From Dehalococcoidia bacterium (lineage in GTDB: Bacteria > Chloroflexota > Dehalococcoidia > UBA2979): 64,000 nt of DNA. Location of the stretch: contig CAXXDN010000002.1 of assembly GCA_963667465.2 (NCBI GenBank), forward strand, positions 192,001 to 256,000, given 5' to 3'. Below, one piece after another: positions 3,736 through 20,197 of this stretch; position 1 is the first letter of the stretch, and each line of letters opens with the position of its first letter. Position numbers and translations under genes: made by a program. Below the pieces are notes generated by a model. It saw nothing but the letters and a program-made list of their open reading frames with translations. It made no database searches and had not been told where the DNA came from.

Positions 3736-4950
3736 CTACAGCGTGACGCCGAGCGCGTCGGCGACCGTGCCCATGTCCTTGTCGCCGCGCCCGCTGAGGT
3801 TGACGAGCACCAGCGCGTCCTCGCCCAGCTCCGGCAGCAGCTTCGCGAGGTGGGCGAGCGCGTGCGCGGGCTCCAGCGCGGGGATGATGCCCTCGGTCTC
3901 GCTCAACAGGCGGAAGGCGGCGAGCGCCTCCTCGTCGGTGACGGAGACGTACTCGGCGCGCTCGCTGACCTTCAGCCAGGAGTGCTCCGGCCCCACGCCG
4001 GGGTAGTCGAGGCCGGCCGAGATCGAGTGTGCCTCCGTGACTTGCCCGTGTGCGTCCTGCAGCAGGTAGGAGCGCGAGCCGTGCAGGACGCCCGGCTCGC
4101 CCGCCGCCAGCGGGGCCGCGTGCCGCCCGTCCAGCCCCTCGCCCGCGGCCTCGACGCCGACCAGCCGCACGGGGTCGTCGACGAAGGCGTGGAACAGCCC
4201 GATCGCGTTGGAGCCGCCGCCGACGCAGGCGAGGGCGACCGTGGGCAGCCGCCCCTCTGCTTCGAGGATCTGCGTGCGCGCCTCGTGGCCGATCACGGCC
4301 TGGAAGTCACGGACCAGCAGCGGGTAGGGGTGCGGCCCGACGGCCGAGCCGAGCAGGTAATGCGTGGTGCGCACGTTGGTGACCCAGTCGCGGATCGCCT
4401 CGTTGATCGCGTCCTTGAGCGTGCGCGAACCGGACTCGACGGTGCGTACCTCGGCGCCGAGCAACTTCATGCGGAAGACGTTGAGCGCCTGCCGCCGCAC
4501 GTCCTCCGCGCCCATGTAGACGACGCATTCGAGGCCGAGCAGGGCGCACGCGGTGGCGGTCGCGACGCCGTGCTGCCCGGCGCCGGTCTCGGCGACGATG
4601 CGTGGCTTGCCCATGCGCTGCGCGAGCAGGCCCTGCGCCAGCGCGGCGTTGATCTTGTGCGCGCCGGTGTGCGTCAGGTCCTCGCGCTTGAGGTAGACGA
4701 TCGGCGCGCCCTCCCCGGCGATCCGCTGCGCGAGGCGGTCGGCGCGCGTGATCGGCGTGGGCCGGCCGACGAAGTCACGAAGCAGCCCGTCAAGCTCCTC
4801 GCCGAAGGCCGGATCCTCGCGTGCGGCCGCGTAGGCCTCCTCCAGCTCGGCGAGCGCCGGCATCAGGGTCTCGGGTACGTAGCGGCCGCCGAAGCCGCCG
4901 AAGTAGCCGCGCTCGTCGGGCAGGGCGGAGCGATCCGTGGTGGTGGTCAT
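3736..4950 (-). CDS. trpB: Tryptophan synthase beta chain
   Basis: Motifs [52 protein letters not shown]. Start trimmed to MTTTTDRS. Confidence 0.97.
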
Positions 4951-5112
4951 GCGGGCGCCCGACTCTGCGGGTTGGCGATGGCCGGCGGCTCGTTTGCAGC
5001 CCGAAGCGTCTCCACGTCGCACCCTCTTCGGCTCGCGCGCGGTGCTGTCGATGATACCGCCGACTCGCTCCAGGGGCTGCGGCGAGGACCGTGCGGCCGG
5101 GTGGTCAGGGGG

Positions 5113-12784: not shown

Positions 12785-13528
12785 TCAGGCGGCGTCCTGC
12801 CGTCGCACGGCCTCGATGAAGTCGCGCACGCGCGCGGGATCCTTGCGCCCCGCGGTCTCCGTGCCGGTCGAGACGTCGACGGCCCACGGTCGCACGCGCT
12901 CGATCGCCTCGCCGACGTTCTCCGGGGTAAGGCCCCCGGCGAGCAGCATCGGCAGCTCGGCGGAGACGATGCGCGCGACCTCCCAGTCGAAGGTGCGGCC
13001 CGAGCCACCGCGGTAGGGCCCGTGCGGCGAGTCGAGCATGAGCGCGATCGCGAACCCCGGCTCGACGAACCTCATCGGATCCGAGGGCGAGTCGAGCGGT
13101 GAGACGTGTACCACCTGGATCACCTGCCGGGCGACCAGCAGGCAGTCCTCCCAGCTCTCATCGCCGGAGAGCTGGACGAGGTCCACGCCGGACTCAAGCG
13201 CCAGCTCGTTGACCTCCTCGATCGGCTGGTCAGCGAAGAGGCCGACGGTGAGCGGCCGTTTCGCCTCGAGGTAGGCCTCGATCACTTCCGCGCCGTGGCG
13301 GAACCACTCGCGCTCGTCCTCGCGCGCGTGGCCCCGGGCGGGGGGCGGCAGCGCGATCTCGTGCGCGGCAAGCGGCTCGCCGAGGGCATGCACCATCGCC
13401 TGCGCCTCGCCGAGGCCGACCTGGCGCGACGATTCGGCGAAGACGATCCCGACGAAGTCGGCGCCGGCCTCAGCGACATTGAGCACGTCGGCGGGTGTGC
13501 GGTTGCCACAGATCTTGACCAGCGTCAT
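12785..13528 (-). CDS. trpF: Phosphoribosylanthranilate isomerase
   Basis: Motifs VKICGN, GGSGRTFDW, LAGGLTPENV, VDVSTG. Confidence 0.94.
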   Translation of the reverse strand: MTLVKICGNRTPADVLNVAEAGADFVGIVFAESSRQVGLGEAQAMVHALGEPLAAHEIALPPPARGHAREDEREWFRHGAEVIEAYLEAKRPLTVGLFADQPIEEVNELALESGVDLVQLSGDESWEDCLLVARQVIQVVHVSPLDSPSDPMRFVEPGFAIALMLDSPHGPYRGGSGRTFDWEVARIVSAELPMLLAGGLTPENVGEAIERVRPWAVDVSTGTETAGRKDPARVRDFIEAVRRQDAA

Positions 13529-14412
13529 CAGCCGCCCACCCGGCTGCGCGCGGGCGCAAGCAGCAGCTCGCGCGCCTTGGCGGCGACATCGCCCGTGCGC
13601 ACCAGCGCCTCGCCGACGAGCAGGGCGTGCGCTCCGGCCTCGGCCATCCGTTCGGCGTCCCCGGCGCTCTGGATCGCCGACTCGGCGACCAGCGTGACGC
13701 CCTCCGGCGCCAGCGGCGCGAGCCGCTCGAAGGTCGCGAGGTCCTCGTCGAAGGTTCGCAGATCGCGGTTGTTGACGCCGATCACGCGCGCCCCCGCGTC
13801 GACGGCTGCGCCGAGTTCGGCGGCGTCGTGGACCTCGACCAGCGCCTCCATGCCCTGCGCGCGGGTGAGTGCGAGCAAGCTGGCGAGCGCGCGGGGCGGC
13901 AGCAGCATCACGATCAGCAGGAGCGCGTCAGCGCCGCGCGCGCGTGCCTCGACGACCTGGTACGGGTCGAAGAGAAAGTCCTTGCGCAGCAGCGCCGGCC
14001 GGTCCATGTCGCCGCCGAACGCCTCCGAGGCGGCCGCGAGGTCCTCGATGCCGCCCTGGAAGAACGTCGGCTCGGTCAGCACGGAGACGGCGGAGGCGCC
14101 GGCGGCCGCATACTCGCGCGCCTGCGTGGCGGCGTCGAGAGCGCCGTCGATCACGCCGCGCGAGGGCGAGGCGCGCTTGATCTCGCCGATCAGCCGCAGC
14201 CGCGCGCCCTCGGGCGAGGCGGCGCGCCCCTCCGTCAATCGTGCCGCGAAGTCGATCGCGGGCGGCCGCGCGGCGGCGAGCCGTTCCAGGGCGTCGCGAG
14301 GTGTCGCCTCCTGGTCCTCGGCGAGCCGCAGCCGCCGGTCGGCGACGATGCGGTCCAGCACGGTACCCGTCTCGCGCGGACCGCTGGAGGCTGCCGAGGC
14401 GTGCGCGGTCAT
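13528..14412 (-). CDS. trpC: Indole-3-glycerol phosphate synthase
   Basis: Motifs IGEIKRASPSRG, SVLTEP, LRKDF, GVNNRDL, AESAI. Confidence 0.96.
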   Translation of the reverse strand: MTAHASAASSGPRETGTVLDRIVADRRLRLAEDQEATPRDALERLAAARPPAIDFAARLTEGRAASPEGARLRLIGEIKRASPSRGVIDGALDAATQAREYAAAGASAVSVLTEPTFFQGGIEDLAAASEAFGGDMDRPALLRKDFLFDPYQVVEARARGADALLLIVMLLPPRALASLLALTRAQGMEALVEVHDAAELGAAVDAGARVIGVNNRDLRTFDEDLATFERLAPLAPEGVTLVAESAIQSAGDAERMAEAGAHALLVGEALVRTGDVAAKARELLLAPARSRVGG

Positions 14413-14416
14413 CGTG

Positions 14417-15442
14417 TCAGCTACGCCGGGTGGCCTCGACGAAGGCGCCGAGACGGGCGGCCGCCTCACCCTCGTCGATTGCCGTCAGCGCCTGCTCGGC
14501 GCCTTGCTGGATCGAGGCGGCGAGGCCGCAGACGTACAGTCCGGCGCCGGTGTTGACGGCGATGAAGTCGCGCAGCGCGGCTGAGCCGGAACCATCGCCG
14601 CGCAGCACCGCGCGCAGCGCCTCGGCGTTCTCCTCGGCGCTGCCGCCGCGCACCTCGTCGAGGGTGCGTTCCGTCACGCCGAGGTCGCGCGGGGTGACGC
14701 GGCGCTGTGTGAGCTCCAGACCGCGCACCTCGAACAGCGTCGTCGGCGCGGAGACGGAGATCTCGTCCAGACCCTCGTCGCTCGAAACCACGAGGGCGTG
14801 GCGGACGCCGAGGCGCGCCAGCGCCCCGGCAAGCAGCTCGGCGGTGGCGAGCCGGGGCGTGCCGAGCACGTGGCAGTTGGCCGAGGCGGGGTTGGTGAGG
14901 GGGCCGAGGATGTTGAAGACCGTGCGCACGCCGATCTCGCGCCGCAGCGGCGCCGCGAAGCGCATCGCGGGGTGGAACGACTGCGCGAAGAGGAAGCCGA
15001 CGCCCGTGCGCTCGATGCAGCTCGCCACCTGCTCCGGCGCGAGCGCGATCTCCGCCCCAAGCGCCTCGAGCAGATCCGCCGAGCCGGACTGCGAGGTCAT
15101 GCCGCGGTTCCCGTGCTTGGCGACCTTTGCGCCGACCGACGCGGCGACGATTGCGGCCGCCGTCGAGACGTTGAAGGTGTTGAGCCCGGAGCCGCCGGTC
15201 CCGCACGTGTCGAGCAGCGGACGTGCGCTCACGTGCGCCTTCAGCGAGTGCTCTCGCATCACGCGCGCCATCCCGACGACCTCGTCGACGGTCTCGCCCT
15301 TGTGGCGCAGTGCGAGGACGAAGGCGCCGAACTGGGCGGGCGTCGCCTCCGCCTCCATGATCTCGTTCATCACGGCGGCGGCCTCGCCCTCGCTGAGGTC
15401 GCGTCCCTCCTCGACAAGCGCCCCGATCGCGTCTGCGATCAT
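14417..15442 (-). CDS. trpD: Anthranilate phosphoribosyltransferase
   Basis: Motifs DTCGTGGSG, NVST, KHGNR, GSADLLEALG, GPLTNP. Confidence 0.96.
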   Translation of the reverse strand: MIADAIGALVEEGRDLSEGEAAAVMNEIMEAEATPAQFGAFVLALRHKGETVDEVVGMARVMREHSLKAHVSARPLLDTCGTGGSGLNTFNVSTAAAIVAASVGAKVAKHGNRGMTSQSGSADLLEALGAEIALAPEQVASCIERTGVGFLFAQSFHPAMRFAAPLRREIGVRTVFNILGPLTNPASANCHVLGTPRLATAELLAGALARLGVRHALVVSSDEGLDEISVSAPTTLFEVRGLELTQRRVTPRDLGVTERTLDEVRGGSAEENAEALRAVLRGDGSGSAALRDFIAVNTGAGLYVCGLAASIQQGAEQALTAIDEGEAAARLGAFVEATRRS

Positions 15443-15819
15443 GAGCTGTTCCCCTGTCGCGACCCGAGCATGTACGCGTCTACGGGCACGAGTCGCTGGC
15501 TTGCCGGGTCGACGCTGAGGAGCAGCGTCTCCAGCGGGACGGCGCCGAGCAGCGGCGATACTCCATCCTCGCCGAAGACCACCGGCGAAGACTCCGCGAC
15601 GTCCCCGATCCGGATCATCGCTGCGCCAGCGTCGCGTTCGATGCGGCTGCCGTCGGCGAGAGTGAACCGTACGCGCCGCGTGGGTTCGATGCCGAGGCGG
15701 CGGAGGATCGCCGTCGGCGCCACCGTGAACGTCGAGCCGGTGTCGACCATCGCTTCGATGGTTTCGAACGGACCATCCCGGCTGGCGGCCACCTCGGCTG
15801 TGACGTTGAACGTGCCCAT
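15439..15819 (-). CDS. Retropepsin-like (clan AA) aspartyl protease
   Basis: AMVDTGSTFT catalytic motif, LADG flap and LLG motif; 126 aa. Confidence 0.88.
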   Translation of the reverse strand: MGTFNVTAEVAASRDGPFETIEAMVDTGSTFTVAPTAILRRLGIEPTRRVRFTLADGSRIERDAGAAMIRIGDVAESSPVVFGEDGVSPLLGAVPLETLLLSVDPASQRLVPVDAYMLGSRQGNSS

Positions 15820-15837
15820 CTCAGGCCGCCTCTCGCC

Positions 15838-16431
15838 TTACGCCGGGGCCGCCGCCGCGCGGGGCGACTCCATGGCGAGGAAGTTGCGCAGCAGCTCGTG
15901 GCCGGTGGTTGTCATGATCGACTCGGGGTGGAACTGGACGCCCTCGATCGGCAGCGTGCGGTGGCGGACGCCCATGATCACCCCGCTCTCCGCGCGCGCC
16001 GTGACCTCCAGCTCGTCGGGCAGCGTGTCCGGCTCGATCGCCAGTGAATGATAGCGAATCGCCTCGAACGGCTGCGGCAGCGACTCAAAGACACCCTTGC
16101 CGTCGTGCGTGACCGTCGAGATCTTGCCGTGCATGATCTCGCCCGCCGGACCGACCCGCGCGCCGAACGCCTCGCCGATGCTCTGGTGTCCGAGGCAGAC
16201 GCCGAGCAGCGGCACCTGCCCGGCCGCCGCCCGGATCAGGTCGATCGAGATGCCGGCCTCCGCCGGCGTGCACGGCCCCGGCGAGACAACGATCCGCTCC
16301 GGCCCCATCGCCAGGCAGTCCTCGACGCTCGTCTCATCGTTGCGCACGACCGCGACCGTCGCGCCCAGCTCTGAGAGGTACTGGTAGAGGTTGTAGGTAA
16401 ACGAGTCGTAGTTATCGATCAGCAAGAGCAT
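15838..16431 (-). CDS. trpG: Anthranilate synthase component II (glutamine amidotransferase)
   Basis: Motifs IDNYDSFTYNL, SPGPC, GVCLGHQ, RYHSL, QFHPES. Confidence 0.95.
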   Translation of the reverse strand: MLLLIDNYDSFTYNLYQYLSELGATVAVVRNDETSVEDCLAMGPERIVVSPGPCTPAEAGISIDLIRAAAGQVPLLGVCLGHQSIGEAFGARVGPAGEIMHGKISTVTHDGKGVFESLPQPFEAIRYHSLAIEPDTLPDELEVTARAESGVIMGVRHRTLPIEGVQFHPESIMTTTGHELLRNFLAMESPRAAAAPA

Positions 16432-16632
16432 GGGAACGCTCCAAACAGGCTGCGGGAGTAAGCCGCGGATCGGCTGCGGACGTTATCGATCAGCAAGAGC
16501 ATGGGAACGCTCCAAACAGGCTGCGGGAGTAAGCACCGGATCGGCTGCGGACGTTATCGATCAGCAAGAGCATGGGAACGCTCCAAACAGGCTGCGGGAG
16601 TAAGCACCGGATCGGCTGCGGACGTTATCGAT
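16411..16632. repeat. 71-bp tandem repeat, 3 copies plus a 9-bp partial, covering the trpG start and 50 bp upstream
   Basis: Unit GTTATCGATCAGCAAGAGCATGGGAACGCTCCAAACAGGCTGCGGGAGTAAGC(CG/AC)CGGATCGGCTGCGGAC starts at 16411, 16482 and 16553. Confidence 0.97.
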
Positions 16633-16645
16633 TGGGAGCACCAGC

Positions 16646-17551
16646 TCAGGCCTCCTCGGCTTCGTCGGGATCCGCCTGCGAGGCGGCAAGCATCTTCTCG
16701 AGTTGTTGCGTGTGTGAGCGGTCGTGGGCCGCGATGCGGGCGATCCGGTCGCCGACGCGCACCGCGCCGCGATCGGCGTGGTCGCCGTAGGCGTCCAACT
16801 CGTCCTGCCCGAGCCCCTCGAGCCAGGCGAGCGTCTCCGCTCGCAGCGCGTCGAGGCGTTCGAGTTCCGTGCGGTCGCTGGCCGGACGCGCGCGGCCGGC
16901 GCGCTCCGCCTCGCCCTGCGCCGGGTTGAACGGCCGCCAGGTATGGCCGGGCGTCTCGAGCAACTCGCGCGCCTCGGAGGCGTAGTAGGCCTCGACTGTC
17001 GCGCAGTGCGTCAGCAAGTCCACCGGCGCCCAGTCGCCATCGAGGCTGACATCGCGCCAGGGCTCATCGAACGCAAGGTAGGCGGCGCGCAGCGCGTCGC
17101 GCGCCGTGATCAGCTCGGCCGTCAGATCCTCGGTGCTGGCGCTCTTCGGCAGCGCGCTCGCGTCCATCGGCAGGCCGCCCAGCCACTCGCGCACGCCCTC
17201 GGCGAGATCGATGCCGGCAGCCCCGCCGGGGGGCGCCCAGGCAGCATCGAGGAAGTCGGCGGGCGCATACTGCGGGTCGCCGCTCCAGGAGCTGCAGAGG
17301 AAGACGTTGGCGATTGCCATCGGCAGCGCGATCGAGTCGCTGAACTCCCTCCGGTCGGGCGACAGGCGGAGGCGGTCGCCGAGCAGCCGCGCCAGCGCCT
17401 GCTCGGCGGTCTCGTCGTCGGCGACGGGTTCCGAGGGCAGCGTCCAGCGGCTGCCCGCGCCGCTGCGCTCCTCGCGGGCGTGGCGCACGAGCAGCACGCG
17501 GCCGTCGCTGCGGCGCAGCGCGGCGGAGGCGACAAGCGGTTTGGGGTCCAT
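16646..17551 (-). CDS. Degenerate NUDIX domain fused to a DinB-family domain
   Basis: N-terminal GRVLLVRH..WTLPSE..ETAEQALAR; C-terminal WAPVDLLTH..E..HDRSH. Confidence 0.78.
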   Translation of the reverse strand: MDPKPLVASAALRRSDGRVLLVRHAREERSGAGSRWTLPSEPVADDETAEQALARLLGDRLRLSPDRREFSDSIALPMAIANVFLCSSWSGDPQYAPADFLDAAWAPPGGAAGIDLAEGVREWLGGLPMDASALPKSASTEDLTAELITARDALRAAYLAFDEPWRDVSLDGDWAPVDLLTHCATVEAYYASEARELLETPGHTWRPFNPAQGEAERAGRARPASDRTELERLDALRAETLAWLEGLGQDELDAYGDHADRGAVRVGDRIARIAAHDRSHTQQLEKMLAASQADPDEAEEA

Positions 17552-19041
17552 CAGTAGCCCAGGCTTCCCGAGGGCGTGCTGCCGCCCGCCCGCTCCTCGG
17601 CGTCGTCGATCGCAGCCATCAACGCGCGCGCCTTGTGCTGTGTCTCCTCGAACTCTCGCTGCGGATCGGAGTCGTAGACGATGCCGCCGCCGGCCTGCAC
17701 GTAGGCGACGCCGTCGCGCAGCAGCACGGTGCGAATCGTGATGCAGGTCTCGACGTTGCCTGAGAGGTCGAAGAAGCCGACCGCCCCCGCGTAGGGGCCG
17801 CGCTGGTCCGGCTCCAGCTCGGCGATGATCTCCATCGCGCGGATCTTGGGCGCGCCGGAGACCGTGCCCGCCGGGAAGGCCGAGCGCAGCGCGTCGTAGC
17901 CGCTCAGGCCCTCGCGCAGCTCGCCCTGCACGTGGCTCACGAGGTGCATGACGTGCGAGTAGAACTCGAGGTCGAAGCTCTGCGTCACCTCGACCGAGCC
18001 CGACTTCGAGACGCGCCCCACGTCGTTGCGCCCGAGGTCGAGCAGCATCACGTGCTCGGCGATCTCCTTCGGGTCGTTGCGCAGCTCCTCAGCCAGCCGC
18101 TCGTCCTCGGCGGGCGAACCGCTGCGCGGCCGGGTCCCGGCGATCGGGTGCACGTCGACGACGCCGTCCTCGACCTTCACCAGCAGCTCCGGCGAGGCGC
18201 CGATGATGGCGATGTCGTCGAACTGCAGGAGGTACATGTAGGGCGAGGGGTTGACCACGCGCAGCGAGCGGTACAGCTCGACCGGGTGCACGCCCGTCTC
18301 GCGCGAGAAGCGCTGCGCGATCACCGCCTGGATGATGTCGCCCTCGACGATGTACTGCTTCGTGCGTTCCACGGCCCGCAGGTAGTCCGCGTGCGCCCAG
18401 TTGGACCCGATCGGCTGCCTGGTCGGCCCGTCGAGCGGGGTGTAGGGCAGCACGGCGAGCGGGGCCTCGAGGCGCTCGGTGAGTCGCTCGATCTTCGCCT
18501 CCGCCGCGTCGTAGGCGGCGTCGACGTCACCATCGAGGCGGGCGAGCGAGATCACCTTGATCGTGTGCAGCACGTGGTCGAAGACCAGCAGCGTGTCGGT
18601 GAACATCAGCCATGACTCGGGCACGCCCAGCGCGTCCGTTTCCGGGCGCGGGATGCGCTCGAAGTGCCCGACGGTCTCGTAGCCGAGGTAGCCGACGGCG
18701 CCGCCGTGGAAGCGTGGCAGCCCCGGCGCCGGGACCGGCCGCAGCCCGGCGATCTCTTCCTCGATCACGCTGAGGGGGTCGCCGTCCTCGTGGTTGAGGG
18801 CGCTCACGCGGTACGGCTCGGTGCCGATGTAGGAGTAGCGCCCCATGCGCTCGCCGCCCTCGACGGATTCGAGCAGGAAGGAGTACTTGCCGCGGGCGAC
18901 CTTGAGGTAGGCGGAAACGGGCGTCTCCAGGTCGGCGCGCACCTCGCGGTAGATCGCCGCGATGTTGCCCTCCCCGGCGGCCGCGAGGCGGCGCAGTTCC
19001 TCGCGGCTGGGTGTGGTGCGGGTTGCGGTCGGTGTCGTCAT
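17551..19041 (-). CDS. trpE: Anthranilate synthase component I
   Basis: Motifs LLESVEGG..GRYS, NPSPYMY, ASPE, PIAGTR, EHVMLLDLGRND, GTVSGAPK. Start trimmed to MTTPTAT. Confidence 0.97.
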   Translation of the reverse strand: MTTPTATRTTPSREELRRLAAAGEGNIAAIYREVRADLETPVSAYLKVARGKYSFLLESVEGGERMGRYSYIGTEPYRVSALNHEDGDPLSVIEEEIAGLRPVPAPGLPRFHGGAVGYLGYETVGHFERIPRPETDALGVPESWLMFTDTLLVFDHVLHTIKVISLARLDGDVDAAYDAAEAKIERLTERLEAPLAVLPYTPLDGPTRQPIGSNWAHADYLRAVERTKQYIVEGDIIQAVIAQRFSRETGVHPVELYRSLRVVNPSPYMYLLQFDDIAIIGASPELLVKVEDGVVDVHPIAGTRPRSGSPAEDERLAEELRNDPKEIAEHVMLLDLGRNDVGRVSKSGSVEVTQSFDLEFYSHVMHLVSHVQGELREGLSGYDALRSAFPAGTVSGAPKIRAMEIIAELEPDQRGPYAGAVGFFDLSGNVETCITIRTVLLRDGVAYVQAGGGIVYDSDPQREFEETQHKARALMAAIDDAEERAGGSTPSGSLGY

Positions 19042-19172
19042 CGTCGTGGTCCTGTTCGTGCGTTGCAGCGTTCCGTGCGTGCGGCGTACGGCCACCACCA
19101 GGCTCCGCCCCGGACGCCACAGAGGCGCGGCGCGGGCTGGTGCTGGTACGGCGCAGGGCTGCTGCGATGCAC
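19038..19172 (-). CDS. trpL: Putative Trp leader peptide, 44 aa (MHRSSPAPYQHQPAPRLCGVRGGAWWWPYAARTERCNARTGPRR)
   Basis: SD GAGGAGG, then GTG at 19172. TGG TGG TGG at 19100-19092. Its TGA overlaps the trpE ATG (ATGA, 19041-19038). Below the ORF-track size cutoff. Confidence 0.72.
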   Translation of the reverse strand: MHRSSPAPYQHQPAPRLCGVRGGAWWWPYAARTERCNARTGPRR

Positions 19173-19215
19173 GATCGGTCCTCCTCGTTCCTCCGGGCAA
19201 CGTCCTCATGGGACG

Positions 19216-19247
19216 AAAAAGGACCACCGCCCTGGGGCGATGGTCCT
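19216..19247 (-). terminator. Intrinsic terminator of the T-box leader
   Basis: Minus strand AGGACCATCGCCC-CA-GGGCGGTGGTCCT followed by a U-run. It overlaps the antiterminator 3' arm CGCCCC. Confidence 0.85.
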
Positions 19248-19540
19248 CGCGGCGCCACCCAAGTTCCGCGCGCCGGCAGGCCTCGAGGCCCGCGGCTCGC
19301 GCTCATTCAAGGCACGGCCACCCGGCTGCCCCGGACGCGGGGCGTGGCGGCGATACCCTGGGCCTGGATAACGGCGCCCACACCGTCGGCGCCTACTTGC
19401 CCCACCATCGGGTCGATTGGGGACGTTCGGGCCGAGACTCCCGGGTCCATTCCGCCGCTGCTGTCGGGCGCCGGGCTTCCACCTTGCCCCGGCTCTCTGG
19501 GCCCCGCGTGGCGGCGTACTACTCCCGTTCCGCGTCGCTC
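19216..19540 (-). promoter_or_regulatory. Trp-specific T-box riboswitch
   Basis: Stem I with AGTA, AG-bulge CAGAGAGCCGG, distal loop GGTGGAAG and specifier loop GAA-TGG-A (TGG at 19449-19447). Stem II GAAC/AGTA S-turn, CCGTTA, and T-box AACTTGGGTGGCGCCGCG (19265-19248). Confidence 0.92.
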
Positions 19541-19563
19541 TCTGTACGCTGCGACCGTGATCG

Positions 19564-19593
19564 AGGCTACGGCTGGCCGCGGCGGAGTGTCAA
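19564..19593 (-). promoter_or_regulatory. Sigma70-type promoter for the T-box/trp transcript
   Basis: TTGACA-18 nt-TAGCCT, about 25 nt upstream of T-box stem I. Confidence 0.7.
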
Positions 19594-19603
19594 CGAGCCT
19601 CGG

Positions 19604-20197
19604 CTACGCCTCCACCGCGCGCCGCCCGGGGCGCGCGCGCTCGCGGGCGACCCAGTCGCGGACGCGGGCGACCGTGCCAGCGAGGTCGCCCTCGACGTTG
19701 ACGATGACGGCGTCGAAGGCGTCCTGTTGCTCCAGTTCGGCGCGGGCGCTGGCGAGGCGGCGTGCGAGTTCGGTGGGGTCCGTGCCGCGCTCGCGCAGGC
19801 GCTGCTCGATCTGCCCCAGGCTCTCGGGGGCGATGAAGAGCAGCCGCGCCTCCGCGATCGCCTCGCGGATCGCGATCGCGCCCTGTACGTCCACCTGCAG
19901 CAGCACGTCGCGCCCGCTGGCGAGGGCGGCCCGCAGCTGTGCGCGCGGCGTGCCGTAGAGGCGGCCGTGTACCTCGGCATGCTCGACCAGCTCGCCGGAG
20001 CGGATGGCGGCCTCGAACGCCTCGGCGGCGGCGAAGACGTAGTGGACCCCGTCGATCTCGCCGAGGCGCGGCGGGCGCGTCGTCATCGTGACGGGGCGGG
20101 CGAACTCGTCGCCTAGGAGCAGCGCGCTCATCAGCGCGTCCTTGCCGACGCCCGACGGCCCCGAGATCACGGCGAGGAGCGGTGGTGGAGTCGACAA
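19604..20197 (-). CDS. gmk: Guanylate kinase
   Basis: Motifs ISGPSGVGK, TTRPPRLGEIDGVHY, YGTP, DVQGA. The real gene is the C-terminal part of the 579-aa track ORF, with a probable TTG start at 20197. Confidence 0.92.
   Translation of the reverse strand: MSTPPPLLAVISGPSGVGKDALMSALLLGDEFARPVTMTTRPPRLGEIDGVHYVFAAAEAFEAAIRSGELVEHAEVHGRLYGTPRAQLRAALASGRDVLLQVDVQGAIAIREAIAEARLLFIAPESLGQIEQRLRERGTDPTELARRLASARAELEQQDAFDAVIVNVEGDLAGTVARVRDWVARERARPGRRAVEA

Follow-up and report, generated by a model that had tools for sequence, protein, structure and literature searches.

A tryptophan T-box followed by a tryptophan-codon leader open reading frame at trpE in an order of Dehalococcoidia: a candidate two-step sensor

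The at (rtpA-ycbK) operon of Bacillus subtilis reportedly carries a tryptophan (Trp) T-box followed by the leader peptide rtpLP, an arrangement credited to Chen and Yanofsky in 2003 and 2004. So far, this one regulatory operon has been the known case in which a T-box and a Trp leader sense tRNA-Trp in tandem. According to two accounts, complete translation of the rtpLP leader prevents translation of RtpA (PMC2311275, PMC10327191). Here, we analyzed a 64,000-nt stretch of DNA from a Dehalococcoidia bacterium (GTDB lineage Bacteria; Chloroflexota; Dehalococcoidia; UBA2979), positions 192,001 to 256,000 of contig CAXXDN010000002.1 (assembly GCA_963667465.2), hereafter the window. Upstream of trpE, a T-box with a UGG specifier and an intrinsic terminator is followed by a short open reading frame (ORF) that contains three consecutive Trp codons and whose stop codon overlaps the trpE start. 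All window features described below are on the minus strand, and positions are those of the window.

As in the B. subtilis at operon, a UGG T-box with its terminator precedes a short three-Trp ORF, a ribosome finishing that ORF would sit on the next gene's ribosome-binding site, and both steps would read the charging of tRNA-Trp. Unlike in the rtpLP system, the controlled gene is the biosynthetic trpE rather than a regulator. The ORF is also longer (32–63 codons, vs. 10 in rtpLP), is unrelated to rtpLP in sequence and occurs in Chloroflexota. The rtpLP stop codon lies just before the next gene's Shine-Dalgarno (SD) sequence, whereas here the stop mostly overlaps the trpE start codon; an rtpLP-like geometry, with the stop ∼11 nt before the SD, was found only in genus g32 (5 of 68 leaders). 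A Trp T-box upstream of trpE has been described in Dehalococcoides (Wels et al., 2008; PMC2494555), and the T-box analyzed here comes from a bacterium of the same class. The leader ORF is not mentioned in the available part of that work, and in the outgroup loci of our set (L029 and L030) the T-box terminator lies directly 5′ of trpE, with no leader ORF. A full-text search of the literature outside subscription papers returned no description of a Trp leader ORF placed between a T-box and trpE, and no T-box work on Dehalococcoidia under that name. What appears to be new is that the rtpLP principle would serve a biosynthetic operon, by way of an ORF that overlaps trpE, outside the phylum of B. 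subtilis and with wide conservation.

The T-box leader RNA (19233..19541) comprises Stem I, Stem III, an insertion and the T-box sequence (Rfam RF00230). In an E-value search, RF00230 matched 19541–19353, from Stem I to Stem III, with 41.1 bits (E 1.5e-7), and a second piece, the antiterminator part, matched at 19284–19233 with 14.5 bits; the insertion splits the two pieces. In this Infernal check, which had been proposed with the original prediction, the match stayed below the RF00230 gathering score of 93, and an Rfam search at that score found no T-box in the window. The T-boxes of relatives scored 29.7–80 bits against the same model, all below 93. The gathering score is a curated threshold and not a structural feature.

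In the cmscan alignment, the specifier loop reads GAA-UGG-A, with UGG at 19449–19447. The GA motif, the AGAGAG and GGUGGAA segments of the distal Stem I and the T-box sequence AACUUGGGUGGCGCCGCG were aligned as well. The UGGC bulge of the T-box sequence lies at 19257–19254, and the sole tRNA-Trp(CCA) gene of the genome ends in G73-CCA, so that its GCCA-3′ is complementary to the bulge. The intrinsic terminator (19216..19248) consists of a 13-pair stem (19248–19219) followed by a U run, and its stem overlaps the 3′ part of the T-box sequence. Since they share these bases, the terminator and the antiterminator are mutually exclusive. The structural hallmarks of a T-box, namely a specifier followed by a purine, a UGGN/NCCA match and a competing U-tailed terminator, are all present, as expected from the prediction of a full T-box with a UGG specifier and a terminator behind it. 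The whole T-box is nearly invariant among six aligned close genomes. The exact GAATGGA motif was found in 62 of the 63 loci that carry both T-box and leader, the remaining locus having the UGG-bearing variant CGAATGGG, and UGGC was found in 67 of 68 relatives' T-boxes.

Two weaker T-box matches, both far below the gathering score, were observed elsewhere in the genome. One (L110, G000:C1:147534-147833) has an AUC specifier and precedes ileS; the other (L111, G000:C2:580257-580367) has ACC at the specifier position as read and precedes a ThrRS-like gene (Pfam tRNA-synt_2b, tRNA_SAD). We take the former as an Ile T-box and the latter as likely a Thr T-box. A third weak match of the genome was not recovered in a search at E 0.1.

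The leader ORF (19038..19172) begins with a GTG at 19172, 7 nt after the SD sequence GAGGAGG (19180..19186), which is kept in relatives. It runs for 44 codons, three of them Trp codons, to a TGA, and the peptide reads VHRSSPAPYQHQPAPRLCGVRGGAWWWPYAARTERCNARTGPRR. The Trp triplet TGGTGGTGG is located at 19100–19092 (leader codons 25–27), and the TGA (19040–19038) overlaps the trpE ATG (19041–19039) as ATGA. The predicted combination of GAGGAGG, a 44-codon ORF with TGG TGG TGG, and the TGA/ATG overlap was thus found in full. For comparison with chance, TGGTGGTGG occurs 72 times in 5.93 Mb, counting both strands (0.012 per kb). From the Trp cluster to the trpE start extends a C-rich, G-poor spacer of 50 nt (19041..19091), which also contains the weak trpE SD (AGGA, 19053–19050) and the 3′ arm of a clade-specific helix (19069–19056). 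The SD energies in the window were −11.8 kcal/mol for the leader vs. −4.0 kcal/mol for trpE. The Trp run was also considered as part of the T-box; this was rejected, because it lies >110 nt beyond the terminator and Rfam matches nothing else in the region.

The conservation of this arrangement was analyzed in the order, which comprises 99 genomes of one family in 21 genera. trpE was found at E 1e-100 in 95 genomes, and the upstream regions of 94 trpE loci were classed (G093, with a C-terminal trpE fragment only, was left out). An adjacent T-box motif together with a Trp-rich leader was present in 63 of the 94 loci. Six loci had the leader without an adjacent T-box, and trpS lies upstream there; one locus had a T-box motif far upstream only. 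Five loci had an adjacent T-box and no leader by our criteria, among them L021, with a WW-containing ORF that has a poor SD and stops 45 nt early, and L124 and L150, with one Trp each. Neither element was found in 19 loci (genera g5, g7, g26 and g33, four of the five genomes of g35, G006 and G088). Conservation of the SD, the in-frame Trp run and the stop overlap in relatives had been suggested as a check, and it was borne out: a Trp-rich ORF ending at the trpE start was present in 69 of the 94 loci, and the element in 16 of the 21 genera.

Of the 19 genomes in the genus of the window, 18 combine the T-box with a leader that has a strong SD, begins with GTG-CAT, contains a Trp run and overlaps trpE as ATGA. 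Fourteen of them read WWW at the run, three WCW and one WRW. The leaders measure 114, 117, 120, 129, 132 or 144 nt, and since these lengths differ by multiples of three, the insertions and deletions are in-frame. The single exception is L012 (G018), in which a 1-nt difference 3′ of the Trp run shifts the leader frame and places the stop 38 nt inside trpE; the difference may be genuine or may stem from misassembly of a C run. The remaining genome of the genus, G006 (L023), differs from the other 18 in that neither a T-box nor a leader was found ≤750 nt 5′ of trpE.

To avoid circularity, ORFs were also picked without regard to Trp: they had to be out of frame with trpE, to have an SD match of at least 4 nt and 20–75 codons, and to stop between −30 and +45 of the approximate trpE start. 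Such a blind choice gave an ORF in 76 of the 94 loci; 67 of these contained at least two Trp codons, 49 at least three, and six none. TGG accounted for 6.7% of in-frame codons (204 of 3041) and for 1.2% (69 of 5930) when the same stretches were read in the two remaining frames, a 5.7-fold enrichment. These counts bear on the alternative that the leader is a chance ORF in a GC-rich spacer and the T-box the sole regulator. Open frames are indeed common at 70.7% GC, the GC content of the source genome, and a 22-codon GTG ORF upstream of trpB (4947-5015), used as a control, shows the ATGA overlap on the trpB start without any Trp codon (it might be a real coupling ORF). The in-frame TGG enrichment under blind choice, the retention of cluster and spacing across 16 genera despite differing peptides, and the in-frame insertions and deletions all speak against a chance ORF, which we disfavor as very improbable. 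These data support the view that (i) the T-box and (ii) the leader ORF are both real, conserved elements.

The detailed analysis set comprised 68 leaders (L159 was dropped, since no trpE start was assigned to it by the script). All 68 leader peptides are distinct, with 32–63 codons and 44 in the window. The Trp cluster has 2–5 Trp codons, the first at codon index 13–44 (median 18), and the distance from the last Trp codon to the trpE start is 37–86 nt (median 50, quartiles 49 and 56). The leader stop is offset from the trpE start by +1 in 36 leaders, +5 in 11, +8 in eight, −4 in four, +14 in three, −25 or −26 in five (genus g32) and +38 in one. With both starts chosen by best SD, the leader SD was stronger than the trpE SD in 56 of the 68. 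The spacer after the cluster is C-rich and G-poor across leaders (C 0.47, G 0.27), compared with C 0.37 and G 0.36 before the cluster. Such a composition is reminiscent of Rho loading sites or of unstructured standby sites. In L148/L036 and L182, extra G/C-rich hairpin-like insertions (∼100–200 nt), which may represent a small repeat element, are found between the terminator and the leader or trpE.

A tandem of T-box and leader upstream of trpE is the conserved anatomy of these loci. By analogy with rtpLP, we tentatively favor, as a reading that we place just short of probable, a two-step tryptophan sensor in which a T-box is followed by a translational check exerted through ribosome traffic and occlusion. 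In the first step, uncharged tRNA-Trp would pair with the UGG specifier and the UGGC bulge, the antiterminator would be stabilized and RNA polymerase would pass the terminator. In the second, ribosomes would load at the strong leader SD and read the three Trp codons ∼50 nt before trpE. With abundant charged tRNA-Trp, leader ribosomes would run through and terminate atop the trpE start, and the steady traffic together with the terminating ribosome would occupy the weaker trpE site, so that little TrpE is made from transcripts leaked past the T-box. Under a shortage of charged tRNA-Trp, the lead ribosome would stall on the Trp cluster, far enough 5′ to leave the trpE site free, and by stopping the traffic it would permit direct initiation at trpE.

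We infer translation of the leader ORF, ribosome stalling on it and the direction of the effect on trpE from the following points. Trp codons are kept in 68 otherwise unrelated peptides, which suggests that stalling is useful; in a biosynthetic operon, a useful stall would mean more TrpE at low charged tRNA-Trp, or less at high. A ribosome covers ∼15 nt on each side. With the stop at −26 to +14 in 67 of the 68 leaders, a ribosome that terminates there would therefore cover or abut the trpE site, and a stalled one would be at least 37 nt away from the trpE start.

Several observations weigh against this two-step sensor. The relatives are not independent, so the counts for the order are inflated by kinship, and the leader is absent from 25 of the 94 loci, including that of G006 in the same genus. 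Positive translational coupling commonly uses the ATGA geometry, and it would predict the opposite effect of stalling. The ATGA overlap alone is in any case weak evidence, because the ORF upstream of trpB shares it and the TGA follows from the Met-Thr start of TrpE. A stall would expose the C-rich spacer, which could invite Rho and lower expression. Finally, when a ribosome footprint was forced on the Trp codons in constrained partition-function folding of 21 loci, opening of the trpE site did not become consistently cheaper; shifts were slight or pointed in both directions (for instance, from 9.2 to 9.1 kcal/mol in the window and from 10.5 to 12.9 in L055). A version in which the Trp-stalled ribosome melts a structure over the trpE site thus gained no support from this folding.

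In classical trp attenuation, as for E. coli trpL and for the Corynebacterium and Streptomyces trpL named in PMC4833913, a tandem-Trp leader ORF likewise lies 5′ of trpE. Unlike there, the leaders of this order have no terminator hairpin and U run after the Trp codons. A run of at least four T between the Trp cluster and trpE+60 was found in none of the 68 leaders, in agreement with the prediction that no second U-tailed terminator is present and that the locus is hence not a classical attenuator. Moreover, the leader ORF ends on the trpE start, which leaves no room for a second terminator. A classical leader-peptide transcription attenuator was rejected on both grounds.

In ermC, cat, secM-secA and mifM-yidC2, a drug or an arrest peptide stalls a ribosome in an upstream ORF, and this stall increases initiation at the downstream gene by way of a hairpin that hides its SD. 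The leader proposed here is similar in that a stall in the upstream ORF would raise downstream initiation, and differs in that the signal would be codon starvation and a conserved hairpin was not detected. In an ermC-type RNA switch, the leader SD and start would base-pair with the region around the trpE SD, and stalled and queued ribosomes would hold the 5′ arm and keep the trpE site open. The original prediction had proposed such a pairing (19174–19161 with 19069–19056) and an inner stem (GTGGCGT/ACGCCGC) enclosing the Trp codons. The pairing exists in the window (duplex z −2.7), but it stands out only in the 11 closest genomes, and the inner stem can be read in the letters, although its 5′ arm lies in a 12-nt insertion that is unique to the window genome among the six aligned.

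The duplex between the two ribosome sites was then compared with shuffled sequences. It beat them in 10 of the 11 closest genomes (z −1.8 to −4.4), with z −1.0 in L003. In the second clade of the genus (seven genomes) z was −1.5 to +1.0, and in 14 loci of other genera −1.4 to +1.1. Single changes in L002 and L003 break pairs of the helix without compensation. We rejected a helix between these two sites as a universal feature, since z is close to 0 in genomes other than the 11 closest. With a ribosome on the first leader codons, opening of the trpE site became cheaper: 3 instead of 9.2 kcal/mol in the window, 2 instead of 6.1 in L003 and 5 instead of 10.6 in L008. This effect was seen in the close clade and, by reading of the profiles, in roughly nine of the 21 loci. 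A version based on a ribosome queue is therefore possible for the close clade, and the median of 18 codons from the leader start to the first Trp codon would give room for a queue reaching back to the start. Because the helix is unremarkable in the second clade and in other genera, its broken pairs are uncompensated, and a stall on the Trp codons by itself leaves the folding result unchanged, we consider an ermC-type switch unlikely as the explanation of the conserved leader.

The ATGA overlap, present in 36 of the 68 leaders, and the weak trpE SD of the window (AGGA, −4.0 vs. −11.8 kcal/mol) would also fit a purely positive coupling, in which the strong leader SD acts as an antenna that recruits reinitiating ribosomes and the Trp codons tune or lower their flow when Trp-tRNA is scarce. 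This hypothesis is stated by Korolev et al. (2016; PMC4833913), who argue that leader ORFs supply the following gene with ribosomes and that stalls at regulatory codons make reinitiation rarer and reduce the supply. Here, however, synthesis of TrpE would drop exactly when the T-box raises transcription. Positive coupling also gives no account of why the codons retained in 68 different peptides are those for Trp only, or of the distance of at least 37 nt to the trpE start. Since the effect of a stall would oppose that of the T-box, we rank positive coupling, which we regard as improbable, below the two-step sensor. Consecutive Trp codons that sense Trp and act on what follows them are also described for YtgCR of Chlamydia trachomatis, which has a WWW motif (PMC7755916). 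Unlike the leader ORF analyzed here, that motif lies inside a protein gene, and its stalling lowers a downstream repressor.

A stalled ribosome might instead protect the read-through transcript, as a 5′ stabilizer against an exonuclease or as a roadblock to Rho, so that operon mRNA would rise and initiation at trpE would be unaffected. Transcripts of erm genes are stabilized by stalled ribosomes, which we take as support for such protection. The direction of the effect would be useful, and no conserved RNA structure would be needed, which fits the duplex and folding results. It would, however, not account for the retention of the leader stop at the trpE start, and the C-rich, G-poor spacer would be exposed rather than hidden by the stall. 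We judge transcript protection to be quite unlikely.

In genus g3 and two g29 genomes (L112, L123, L133, L134, L125 and L169), the gene order is trpS, Trp leader ORF, trpE. In G020 (L112, G020:C1:976300-979700), a UGG T-box precedes trpS, so that one T-box serves the synthetase and the pathway, and the leader is found on trpE only. A leader placed between trpS and trpE suggests that it acts on trpE independently of the terminator, and in this layout it would give trpE its own check within one transcript.

The last Trp codon is followed by C (UGGC) in 63 of the 68 leaders and in 15 of 16 genera, against a background of 0.35 for C at first codon positions. The codon after the last Trp is Arg in 45 and Pro in 12 of the 68 leaders (window site, 19092–19089), and UGGC is the same four-letter sequence as the tRNA-binding bulge of the T-box. 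It is possible, although we hold it with some doubt, that the leader is a structure-free translational attenuator: a Trp cluster in an overlapping ORF would gate trpE purely by traffic and termination, stacked on a T-box throughout the order. In some genera one T-box would then drive trpS and trpE, with the second check on the biosynthetic branch only, and the UGGC context may sharpen the stall.

Near-identical DNA is present in sponge metagenome runs. In the sponge metatranscriptome X19, the only contigs are of relatives (90–95% likeness); they cover parts of trpE and do not show transcript ends or strand. A single piece bridges the start of trpE and the Trp run, and Stem I of the T-box is covered by two; DNA carry-over is possible for these pieces.

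If the two-step sensor is correct, tandem T-box and leader sensing of tRNA-Trp extends to a biosynthetic trp operon of another phylum, with another geometry, in an uncultured and largely sponge-associated order, and T-box control and leader-peptide control are not alternatives. The 68 leaders offer natural variants for dissecting ORF features such as spacing, stop position and the UGG-C context. For annotation, the loci carry a warning, since the T-boxes fall below the Rfam gathering score and gene callers are not suited to ORFs as short as these leaders.

The first feature 5′ of the trp promoter-like site is a guanylate-kinase-like gene that ends at 19604. The promoter-like site (19564..19593) consists of TTGACA (19593–19588), an 18-nt spacer and TAGCCT (19569–19564), as the original prediction described it. 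It was not called by a simple consensus promoter scan; it is identical in six of six close genomes, and conservation in the alignment sets in exactly at the −35 box. The trpE gene (17551..19041) encodes anthranilate synthase component I, with 496 amino acids (Pfam Chorismate_bind 1.6e-91, Anth_synt_I_N 7.6e-30). Its start is fixed by the relative L014, which has an in-frame TAG 18 nt 5′ of the common ATG. A longer TrpE beginning at an in-frame ATG at 19209 was rejected: this ATG has no SD and lies at the foot of the terminator, and the in-frame TAG of L014 limits the open frame there to 502 amino acids.

Downstream of trpE, the operon continues over 12785..17551 with a NUDIX/DinB gene (16646-17551), trpG (15838-16431), trpD (14417-15442), trpC (13528-14469) and trpF (12785-13528), all assigned with Pfam. 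trpB (3736-4950) is separate from trpE–F and has no T-box on its 5′ side. The NUDIX/DinB gene, with NUDIX and DinB_2 domains, lies within the trp operon between trpE and trpG, and its start abuts the trpE stop.

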